From: Rhynchobatus australiae
Taxonomy: Eukaryota
Assembly: GCA_034780895.1 (NCBI GenBank)
Contig: JAUZTB010000094.1
Span: 2,247,111-2,311,110 of the forward strand
Length of the DNA: 64,000 nucleotides
Direction of reading: 5' to 3'
Below, in pieces: positions 1 to 52,530 of the stretch (position 1 is the stretch's first letter; the number at the start of each line of letters is the position of its first letter). Below the pieces are notes generated by a model. That model saw nothing but the letters and a program-made list of their open reading frames with translations, was not told the DNA's origin and made no database searches. The position numbers were made by a program, and so were the translations under genes.

Positions 1-2504
1 CTTAAAATTCCCAAAAGAGTCCACTTGATCCTTTCACAGAGCATATTTCTGGGGAATCCTTCCTAATTGTCCATTGACTGTGGTCAGTTAACTAAAGTAA
101 TTCCTTATGCTGCTGTTTTTTTTTGCTATTCCAGGATTAGCAAGGGAGGTATGGACAACTTGAGGCTTTTCTTTTCAGTGACAGAGCTTCTCCACCCTTC
201 CCTCTTGTCATCTCCAACACTAACTGGGAGCAACACCTTGGTGTTTCCATCTCAGAAATCAGAACCATCTGAGTTTCAGACCTCGCGTCCTTACCAATGC
301 TAAACCCACTTATTCCCACCTTGGCCACATTGCCTGCCTCTTCCTCTTCGGCCCCAGTGTCTCTGAAAAGCTCACCCCCTCCCAGTCTCTTACTCCGGGT
401 TGATCTTATTGCCTGTCTGAGATCCAAAGTCACATCTCCCTGCTGATTCCAAGGCTGTGGTTCCCCCATTACTCCAGCGCTCATCAACCTTCACTGCTCT
501 CTGTGCACTTCAACATTCTCTTCAGAAGCCTAGTCTGNNNNNNNNNNNNNNNNNNNNNNNNNNNNNNNNNNNNNNNNNNNNNNNNNNNNNNNNNNNNNNN
601 NNNNNNNNNNNNNNNNNNNNNNNNNNNNNNNNNNNNNTCAGAAGCCTAGTCTGCAACCCACTCAGTATTGTCCCTCCTCACCTCCACAACCTCATTCAGC
701 TCCATGTTTTTCCAACTCAGGCTTCATGCCAATACCGATCCACCTTCTTGCCCCCTCCCCGACCCCTCTCTTAGTTGTATTTCATCTCCTCCCTTGAGAA
801 CTCACTCCCCAAATCCTTCCCTTGTTGCTACCACAAGAACTCTCCTTAAATTGGTCACCTGTTGAATTCTTCTGGCTCCATTTTGCAGTGGTTAGTTCTT
901 TGACTGTATAAACTCAGAATATTGCTTGGCTGTGATATTGTCTTCAATAATTGTAACTGCACTTCCTGCTCTCTGCATTGATAGAAAGCCCAGTGGTACT
1001 GTACATCAGAAGGTCTCACTGAAACTTTGGTACTGGGGTGGAGTGATCAATACATAGCTTGAGCACCAGGTGCTTTGTATTATTAAGGAATCAGTTTAGG
1101 CTTTGTGTCCAGCCTAGAGTTGAGGGATGAGAAGCTCCTGACTGCTTGGAAGACTCAAAATTGACATGACTGAGTAGCCTCAATCCAGTCATCAGTCATT
1201 TAAAGTTGAAGGTAGCACAATCTCTGAGGTCATGGGGTAGTTGGCATTGGTGGGGAGGTGTGAAGTGGCAAGGGAAATAGGATCTTGATACAACAAAGGA
1301 TCAGGTACATAGTCGAATTGTGATACATGCCTAGCCTTCTTATTGACCTTTCTCCCACCATGTTTTACTGGCTTTTTAACCCCAAATTCTCAGCATATGT
1401 CAGAATTCTACCAAGAATCATAAGTAGCCTCAGAAGGCAAAATGTGCTCAGTTTAAAGTCTCTGAAGTTGGTAAAATCTAACCATTCCCTAAGACAAAAT
1501 TAAAGATGGTTCTGAACTGAGGTGGTTTGAATGGCTTTTCTCTCAGGATAACACCCAGTGCGTGGTCATTGGTGATCACACTTGCAAAGCCAGAGAAGTG
1601 ACCAAGCTGGGAAGCACCTGAAGTGAATGGCATGGAAACTGAATTCAGTTCTTCACACTGACCGATCCACATCCACTCCCACAGAATTCTGGAATAGTTC
1701 TTTATAAAAAGACACCATCCCTGATTTTGTGATCAGCAGCCAGCGCTATCACCTCACTGCAGGGTTCAAAGCACACTGCCCTAGCAACCTCTGCGGCATG
1801 GACTTCCTCTTACTTAGCTCCTGCTGCTGCCAGGCATCCGCTCAAGGGGATTCCTGGGCACTCAACGGCTGTGGTATTGTCAAGCTGGTCAGGCAGATAA
1901 TCAGGTGAAAGAATAATCAGCAGCAAACCAAAGCGCAAAGATTGGTACATACACCCTGGATTAAAAATATTTATGTAATATCAATGAATTTAATTTTAAG
2001 ATTATAAATATATTATATTTTGAAATGTTTAACTGAGGAAATTTCAACCAACAGACAAAATGTTAGGGCAGAGTATGCTAGCCAGTAATTATGGTTTAGT
2101 ATGGCTTGAAAACACTTAAATCTCAGCAACAAAACACAACCTTTCCAGAGTATTTAACGGCAAGACTAGTTTGCAAATACGTAAATTAAACTGATTTTCT
2201 GTTGACTCTGGTGGACAAGGCTCCAGAACTGTGAAGCCCGTGGAGTGCGGGGCCAAATCAGTGACAGGAACCTTGAGACCTCTGCATTAAACTGTGTACC
2301 TGTGGGAATCCCAAGGTTGCTGTCAGTTTCACGGTATTGATGGCAAACACTGTTGGATTCACCATCATCCTAAGTCTGCAATAACCAAACACTCCCCACT
2401 CTCCCCCTCCAATTGGCATCTGGTTTTACACATTGACTGGTCAGTAAAGGATGGAAAGGAATGTTAGCCGGAAGCTCACTCTTCGCCCCTCATTCTCCTC
2501 GCAG

Positions 2505-2576
2505 GTCTCTGGCTGTGAGGGCTACAGCCCAGATGAAACCAAACTCATTGGATTTGCACAGCTCAGCATGAGATGA
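2505..2576 (+). CDS. Terminal coding exon of a SPAK/OSR1 (STK39/OXSR1)-family Ste20 kinase (end of the CCT domain)
   Basis: Branch-like ctcac (~2475), polypyrimidine tract and acceptor cttcgcccctcattctcctcgcag|GTC. Translates [23 protein letters not shown], close to the recalled C-termini of human STK39 ([24 protein letters not shown]) and OXSR1 ([24 protein letters not shown]), with the stop at the same position. Upstream exons not confidently seen. Confidence 0.85.
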   Translation, partial: [23 protein letters not shown]

Positions 2577-12906: not shown

Positions 12907-14049
<1,143 letters not shown>

Positions 14050-15130: not shown

Positions 15131-15295
<165 letters not shown>

Positions 15296-50997: not shown

Positions 50998-51155
50998 TAG
51001 AACAAAGAAAAACTGTGGCACAATTCAGGCCCTTCGGCCCACAAAGCTGTGCCAAACATGTCCTACCCTAGAAATTACTATGCTTACCCATAGCCCTCTA
51101 TTTTACTAAGCTCCATGTACCTATCTAACAGTCTCTTGAAAGACCCTATCGTATC
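50998..51155 (-). mobile_element. CR1-type 3' tail fragment abutting the Tx1 copy
   Basis: Reverse complement of the tail seen on + at 39351-39410 (cacagctttgtgggctgaagggcctgaattgtgccatagtttttctatgtttcta). Confidence 0.75.
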
Positions 51156-52530
51156 AGATCTGGTTCGGAGGGGCAGAGGCATGCAACAAAAATTGGCGGG
51201 AGCGGATTGGGAAGGTGAAGCAGAAACTGGGATGGTGGGAACGGCGCTCCCTATCGATGACTGGGAGGAACTTGGTCATCAGGTGCGAGGCGCTCTCAGG
51301 GCTGCTGTACTTGGCGCAGGTGTGGCCTGTTCCCCGCTCCTCTGGCTTGGAGATCACCCGTGCCGTCTTCCGGTTCATCTGGGGATCCAAGATGGAGCGG
51401 GTCCAACAGGTCACAAAGCACAAGTCCCTGGACAATGGGGGGTAAAGCTGTCCCCAGTGTCACCATCATCCTGATGATCACCTTCATCTGTGGCTGCATC
51501 AGGCTGGTCGTGGAACCGAAGTACGTGGGCACTAAGTGCCACTACGTACCAAGGTTCTACCTGTCCCGACGGTTGCGAAGGATGGGTCTGGCCCCGTGGC
51601 CACACAACGCCCCAGTCAGCTGGACGTTGCCACACTACCTGTCCTTCGTGGAGAAGATCTTCCGGACCTACCCCTTTGACCACAAGTCCATCAGGTAGTG
51701 GTCAGCGCGGAACATCCTGCAGACACTGCAGGAGGAGGACTCGATGGACACGGTGGGGTGGTTCCCTGAGCAGACTGTCCAGACCATCTGGCAGAATGCC
51801 ACATCGCCAGAACTCACAACAAGCACCAAGACCTGGGTTGGCTGGCGGTGAGAGGGGCCCTCCCAGTCAGATCTCTCCTGATTGGCTGGGGCATCACCCC
51901 CAGTGCGCGCTGCCCCCAGGAGGACTGCGCTGGGGAGGAGACGGTCACCCACCTCTTTGTGGAGTGTGGGTTCGCGAAGAGGGTGTGGCGAAAGATGTAG
52001 GGGTCCTTGTCCCGGTTTATCCCCAGCAGCTGCGTGACAGAGGATTCTCTGATCTACGGGCTGTTCCCGGGGACGCACACAGAGATGGACATCAACTGCT
52101 GCTGGAGAGTCATCAATTCGGTGAAAGACGCTCTTTGGTCTGCCCGGAAGTTGTTGGTCTCCCAGCACTGTGAGATGTCCGTAGGCGAATGCTGCCAACT
52201 GGCACACTCCAGGCTGCAGGAGTACGTGCTGAGGGACGCCCTGAAGCTGGGCGCAGCCAGTGCAAGGGCTCAGCGGGGAAGGATGACAGTCCAGGTTTTC
52301 TTCCGCCACAGGAGAGGGAGGGGTGGGGTCAGGTGAGGAAGCCCCACAAATATTGTAAATATGGGGTTGGGGTATCCCCCCAGGGAGCCACATGTGTGGC
52401 ATCGGGGCTGTGTCTTTATATATAAGAAGTAACACTAAGAACGGAACTGTACACAAATGTAAAGGTTTGAACTGGTTTATTATTTTATATAGTTTCTTTT
52501 ATTATAAATAAAGTTTATTTTGTTAAAATA
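51156..52530 (+). mobile_element. Tx1/L1-clade LINE, 5'-truncated 3' fragment
   Basis: GC-rich; IWFGG...WERRSLSMTGRNLVIR (RT end/thumb), CPQEDCAGEETVTHLFVECGFAKRVW zinc knuckle; 3' UTR with aataaa and an A-rich tail; a few stops and frameshifts. Confidence 0.88.

Follow-up and report, generated by a model that had tools for sequence, protein, structure and literature searches.

A probable third SPAK/OSR1-family kinase gene, located between CERS5 and LIMA1 in cartilaginous fishes and likely the 2R sister of STK39

A short exon near the left edge of a 64,000-nucleotide stretch of the Rhynchobatus australiae genome (the window, C94:2247111-2311110, C94 being contig JAUZTB010000094.1) can be assigned with good confidence to the end of a full SPAK/OSR1-family gene that lies between CERS5 and LIMA1, is conserved in cartilaginous fishes and is likely the 2R sister of STK39. 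The gene is a real, likely undescribed third member of the family and a case of hidden paralogy; no published account of a third SPAK/OSR1 paralog or of STK39 loss was found in the literature searched, which consisted mostly of papers open without subscription. Lineage-wise loss of whole-genome-duplication (WGD) duplicates, as seen here, underlies the hidden paralogy of Nodal and Lefty in the accessible part of PMC12344233, and no such case was found reported for the SPAK/OSR1 family in the literature searched.

The last exon, its gene and its neighbours

The exon is 72 nt long and encodes 23 residues followed by a stop codon (Table 1). Searched alone against 177,635 PDB sequences, these residues matched the CCT domain of SPAK (E = 4e-4) and that of OSR1 (E = 0.02), in agreement with the initial annotation, which had read them as the CCT-domain end of a SPAK/OSR1-family protein. 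The annotation was also right in describing a splice acceptor followed by a kinase exon on the + strand, but it placed the exon start at 2470, where the intron ends; the exon begins at 2505. A chance match of the 23 residues is excluded because the gene has 14 further coding exons upstream, on the same strand and 3-44 kb to the left of the window. The gene spans 46 kb on C94. Its introns are GT-AG, exons 1-10 join in phase to give 318 residues without a stop, and its exon boundaries match those of OXSR1, so it is not a retrocopy. The start of a 23-residue cassette exon is visible in intron 10, where STK39 has its cassette exon, and runs into N.

Table 1. Coordinates of the kinase gene and its neighbours (window positions unless prefixed by C94)
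Feature	Position	Strand	Remark
End of the last intron of the kinase gene	1-2470	+	remaining exons lie left of the window
Splice acceptor (AG) of the last exon with its pyrimidine tract	2471-2504	+	AG at 2503-2504
Last (16th) coding exon of the kinase gene, CCT/PF2 end and TGA	2505-2576	+	same 23 residues terminate 11 database orthologs
Kinase coding exons 1-14: kinase domain, S-motif, WEW motif, first part of CCT	C94:2203092-2244016	+	
CERS5 exon 1	C94:2177356-2177526	-	divergent, 25.6 kb from the kinase start codon
LIMA1: last exon 12907-14049 (ORF), LIM exon 15131-15295, further exons to at least 49627	12907-49627	-	convergent with the kinase gene

Two features of the C-terminus had been thought to set the gene apart. 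The spacer that is shorter by one residue does so without exception, being present in 34/34 pattern-matching proteins of the new type and in 0/201 others. The -SMR ending is less diagnostic than proposed, as endings of the new type vary (-SMR, -SIR, -SVR) and only the terminal Arg is constant (in the 37 of 49 proteins that end in the last exon).

The gene order on C94, a HoxC-bearing scaffold, is CERS5(-), kinase(+), LIMA1(-); the convergence with LIMA1 and the divergent CERS5 upstream were both anticipated correctly. On scaffold C1 the order is CERS6, B3GALT1, XIRP2. When the two scaffolds were aligned exon by exon, six CERS exons on C94 paired with CERS6 and three LIMA1 exons with XIRP2, in the same order and on the same strands, which upholds the proposal that the CERS5-kinase-LIMA1 slot is paralogous to CERS6-STK39-XIRP2. 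The assignment of the C1 gene to CERS6 is clear from its exon 1, which is identical to human CERS6 at 56/57 positions; the CERS exon on C94 scores lower. Hox11 matches are found on both C94 (0.2 Mb) and C1 (45.6 Mb). The one on C94 (204625-205008) is a divergent exon, likely HoxC11, that scores 84 bits compared with about 200 for the other two.

Beyond LIMA1 and CERS5 on C94 are CS-domain, DDT-domain, FAM186-like and CSRNP exons, and the outer neighbours are presumably PTGES3, BAZ2A and CSRNP2, with a human position that we take to be 12q13. The FAM186-like ORF (C94:2355842-2357731, 630 residues) lies beyond the 5' end of LIMA1. Within the window, 5' of the last LIMA1 exon identified, decayed reverse transcriptase fragments occupy 51094-52498; by their general likeness they are presumed to be LINE-type. 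The human order is taken to be CERS6-STK39-XIRP2 in one region and LIMA1 followed by CERS5, with no kinase between them, in the other. In chicken, 22 kb separate the positions given for LIMA1 and CERS5. The available part of the PMC10972751 source data gives CERS5 as CLGB beta2 and CERS6 as CLGB alpha2, a pair that dates to the 2R event of jawed vertebrates. In the same data the Xenopus models carry the numbers 90006574 (cers5) and 90006576 (lima1), and the intervening model, absent from the table, could be either a bony-vertebrate copy of the kinase or an unrelated gene.

Distribution, phylogeny and origin

New-type proteins made up 49 of the 461 retrieved, and all were chondrichthyan, coming from about 20 elasmobranch species and the chimaera Callorhinchus; no bony-vertebrate copy was among the 461. 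In a search with the C-terminus, the new-type proteins scored 242-433 bits, and the next matches, bony-vertebrate STK39 proteins, scored at most 193 bits (best 120 of 1894 matches). The orthologs are already in public annotation, named SPAK-like in RefSeq (e.g., XP_051865384.1) and SPAK in Callorhinchus; SPAK-like is a name given by similarity only, and no paper treating these proteins as a separate paralog was found. The Callorhinchus ortholog, XP_042200308.1, lies on a 5.3-Mb contig and is 87.7% identical to the C94 gene, whereas STK39 of the same species lies on a 31.0-Mb contig and shares 85-87% identity with STK39 of bowfin and coelacanth and 72-75% with its own new-gene copy. That the chimaera carries both genes supports the earlier claim that the kinase is distinct from STK39 and OXSR1. 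The accompanying claim, that the gene was lost in the human lineage, is too narrow, as its absence extends to all bony vertebrates among the proteins retrieved.

Trees were built from hand-picked sets of 36, 24, 18 and 19 of the retrieved proteins; five sequences were trimmed of unalignable ends, and cyclostomes were absent. The new gene formed a separate clade (100/100) with a long stem branch and joined STK39 to the exclusion of OXSR1, with support of 87 in a quick tree, 98/96 under LG+G4 and 71/87 under a site-mixture model. This grouping was recovered in 977/1000 bootstraps, compared with 4/1000 for the new gene with OXSR1, and the new gene also shares its cassette-exon position with STK39. 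An AU test did not reject the grouping of STK39 with OXSR1 (p = 0.09). A basal position of the new gene outside STK39 and OXSR1, in keeping with the few residues it shares with invertebrates, was likewise not rejected by the AU test; it appeared in 12/1000 bootstraps and was set aside.

The nearest relative in the trees is thus SPAK, to which the new protein is 76-79% identical and with which it shares the T-loop, the S-motif serine and the CCT pocket, in a mirrored gene neighbourhood. It differs from SPAK in its location (CERS5/LIMA1, on the HoxC chromosome), in its coexistence with STK39 in the chimaera, in its stem branch (0.34-0.39 versus 0.04-0.13), in 24 alignment columns at which it alone differs, several of them in the CCT domain, in lacking the Pro/Ala-rich N-terminal box, and in its shorter spacer and terminal Arg. 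It is 75-77% identical to OSR1 and resembles it in exon boundaries and domain order, but this genome has its own OXSR1, on scaffold C135. A separate oddity of the family is an OSR1-like protein of Cynoglossus semilaevis whose HRD and DFG motifs are degenerate and which may be a pseudokinase duplicate.

Within the group formed by STK39 and the new gene, a later origin has to be weighed, in which the gene arose in the chondrichthyan stem as an STK39 duplicate, or through conversion of an old 2R locus by STK39, and then evolved fast. All three trees that include chimaera STK39 place the new gene with it, albeit without strong support (74/52, 51/70 and 81/68), as did 735/1000 bootstraps, compared with 251/1000 that place the new gene outside all gnathostome STK39, the topology expected under 2R. 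Five columns unite the new gene and chimaera STK39 against bony STK39 and OXSR1, compared with two for STK39 monophyly, and the failure to retrieve a bony-vertebrate copy points the same way. However, at each of the five columns the same residue occurs in at least two of five invertebrate outgroups, so these may be retained ancestral states, and AU tests do not reject the 2R topology (p = 0.35 and 0.29). A fresh duplicate would moreover have to land between CERS5 and LIMA1, oriented as STK39 is between their 2R paralogs. A later origin is therefore considered unlikely.

Synteny favours the alternative that the kinase and STK39 are 2R ohnologs that were lost reciprocally, which the trees neither prove nor reject. 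The 2R origin thus rests on synteny. The initial annotation had proposed that the gene could be a WGD ohnolog; the equivalence of the slots and the status of CERS5 and CERS6 as a 2R pair agree with this, and in the phylogenetic check it proposed, the gene forms a separate clade that joins STK39. Under a 2R origin, the jawed-vertebrate ancestor would have carried OXSR1, STK39 (between CERS6 and XIRP2, on the HoxD chromosome) and the new gene (between CERS5 and LIMA1, on the HoxC chromosome). The new gene would then have been lost in bony vertebrates and STK39 likely lost in elasmobranchs, with both kept in chimaeras.

STK39 absence and the state of the locus

The genome was searched three times for SPAK/OSR1-family loci, with an ortholog of the C94 gene, bowfin STK39 and chimaera STK39 as queries (87 of 301 candidates scored in one search, 10/10 in each of the two others). 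Only two loci were found, the one on C94 and one on C135, which is OXSR1: its identity to bony OXSR1 is 88-91%, and a Xin-repeat gene lies convergent with it. Four further CCT-like loci were matched and are likely WNK genes. The slot expected to hold STK39, the CERS6-B3GALT1 interval on C1, is 74.7 kb long and includes 19 kb of N (longest run 7.7 kb). Neither tblastn nor a profile search found a kinase exon in this slot, with 19 of its 74.7 kb being N, and the same profile, with a threshold of 13 bits, detected 14 exons on C94 and 15 exons on C135. No tblastn match to an STK39 remnant was obtained in 400 kb of C1 with four queries. The best family-profile match on C1 (8.5 bits, E = 1.4) fell outside the slot and was taken as chance. 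Separate STK39 and OXSR1 loci had been suggested as a check, and only OXSR1 is in its place. Because this ray's genome lacks STK39, the C94 gene is likely a substitute for SPAK and not an addition to it, contrary to the earlier suggestion that elasmobranchs have an extra regulator.

It could be argued that STK39 loss is confined to this ray and that sharks and rays generally keep three genes, which would restore the notion of an extra regulator. The chimaera does keep both STK39 and the new gene, and a shark STK39 could sit beyond the matches listed, which were the best 120 or those above a score threshold. However, no elasmobranch was present among the STK39-type proteins in the matches listed (three lists), and in the bamboo shark the CERS6 and B3GALT-family models are numbered consecutively, where in Xenopus two numbers fall between them. 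The bamboo-shark numbering (one species) suggests that STK39 was lost in sharks as well, and general retention of three genes is judged to have a small probability. The bamboo-shark ortholog of the new gene, chiPu_0018183, is two numbers from a CERS model on chr43 and near a LIMA1-family model. No OXSR1 of the chimaera was seen among the results obtained. There was no stk39 entry in the accessible portions of the supplements of PMC10620051, PMC10972751, PMC10115646 and PMC12318234 or in 12 of the 24 files of PMC8455134.

Whatever its origin, the C94 gene might be a pseudogene in this species, since a net 4-nt loss in exon 11 (C94:2240393) leads to a stop in exon 12, with the frameshift preceding the CCT domain in this assembly, and exon 15 was found neither in its interval nor elsewhere in the genome. 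This is quite unlikely. The interval where exon 15 belongs includes a 1.4-kb N run, and the gene model is identical to the intact Pristis pectinata RefSeq SPAK-like protein at 438/441 positions. The contig of a relative (one contig, depth 4.4) carries the four letters. In the best-matching read run, which may be from the source sample, the contigs break exactly at the change, as the presence of two alleles would cause: depth is 9.7 at the base before it, there is no coverage at the site, and a new contig starts from the base after. We infer that the frameshift reflects either a difference between two alleles or a mistake in the assembly. In this assembly, small faults seem to be common in coding DNA. 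The XIRP2 reading frame (C1:33354395-33374051) is split into several ORFs, and a short run of N breaks up an exon of OXSR1 on C135.

That the new gene is simply the ortholog of STK39, relocated next to LIMA1 in the cartilaginous fishes, would fit the two family genes of this genome, of which that on C94 is closer to STK39 in the trees, and the RefSeq names, but it is effectively excluded because Callorhinchus has the new gene and, on another contig, a second gene that is clearly of STK39 type.

Predicted function, X linkage and significance

The residues on which SPAK and OSR1 function depends are largely kept. Among long orthologs the HRD, DFG, T-loop and WEWS motifs are each present in 44/44, VAIK in 41/44 and the S-motif in 38/44. 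The Pristis ortholog matches the Pkinase domain with E = 7.5e-64, and the C-terminal CCT/PF2 domain is a PF12202 match. Close alignments to solved structures of SPAK and OSR1 were obtained for both domains, and the ortholog, aligned to 7o86 and 2v3s, keeps the equivalent of OSR1 Leu473. The numbering of this Leu473 equivalent presumes that the chain ends at residue 527. The available part of PMC4512625 gives the SPAK/OSR1 T-loop and S-motif peptides and identifies OSR1 Leu473 as the key RFxV contact; the peptide around the T-loop threonine (SPAK T233/OSR1 T185) is identical in the new kinase, and the S-motif serine (S373/S325) is kept with changed flanks.

As the catalytic, WNK-site and RFxV-pocket residues are kept, the new kinase likely works as SPAK and OSR1 do. 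SPAK and OSR1 act between WNK kinases and SLC12 cotransporters (PMC7606576, accessible part), and the conserved residues make the same position likely for the new kinase. WNK kinases would dock on its CCT domain via RFxV motifs and phosphorylate the T-loop threonine and the S-motif serine; the activated kinase would in turn dock on and phosphorylate NKCC, NCC and KCC cotransporters, and may take SPAK's place beside OSR1. The multi-isoform RefSeq models suggest that the gene may be transcribed. No RNA data set was listed as matching the last exon and the DNA that follows it, and two runs presumed to be RNA covered none of the exons compared; neither outcome bears on expression.

In sharks and rays, X linkage of the gene is likely. 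Hox11 and a pair of Nramp genes are found on C94, as bioRxiv 2025.02.26.637739 reports for the X in its available part, and the contigs of the orthologs (16.4 Mb in Pristis, 28.8 Mb in Carcharodon, 73.1 Mb in Mobula hypostoma and 103,180,129 bp in Narcine) fit the size limits of the X, and Narcine chr12 (the X-homolog), from the same source. The two Nramp genes are SLC11A2-like and in tandem at C94:13.01-13.16 Mb. The elasmobranch X has incomplete dosage compensation and about 1.5-fold female-biased expression (PMC12318234, accessible part). If the gene is outside the pseudoautosomal region, incomplete compensation predicts that its expression is sex-biased. HoxC is pseudoautosomal in some sharks, and the dosage effect is uncertain because the kinase gene is 2 Mb from Hox11 on C94.

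To our knowledge, the SPAK/OSR1 family has been treated as having two vertebrate members, and the new gene adds a third. Retention of WGD copies only in cartilaginous fishes is a familiar pattern, so the surprise is limited. Orthology nevertheless changes, because the proteins annotated as SPAK-like in sharks are a paralog and not SPAK. A tentative extension, possible but doubtful at present, is that sharks and rays have no SPAK, that a divergent, X-linked 2R sister has replaced it, and that rectal-gland NKCC1 runs on OSR1 and the new kinase, with a higher dose in females and altered CCT docking preferences. Lytle and Forbush reportedly described NKCC phosphorylation in the shark rectal gland in 1992; as this gland is a classic model of that process, which kinases it contains is directly testable, and the chimaera, with both STK39 and the new gene, offers a natural comparison.
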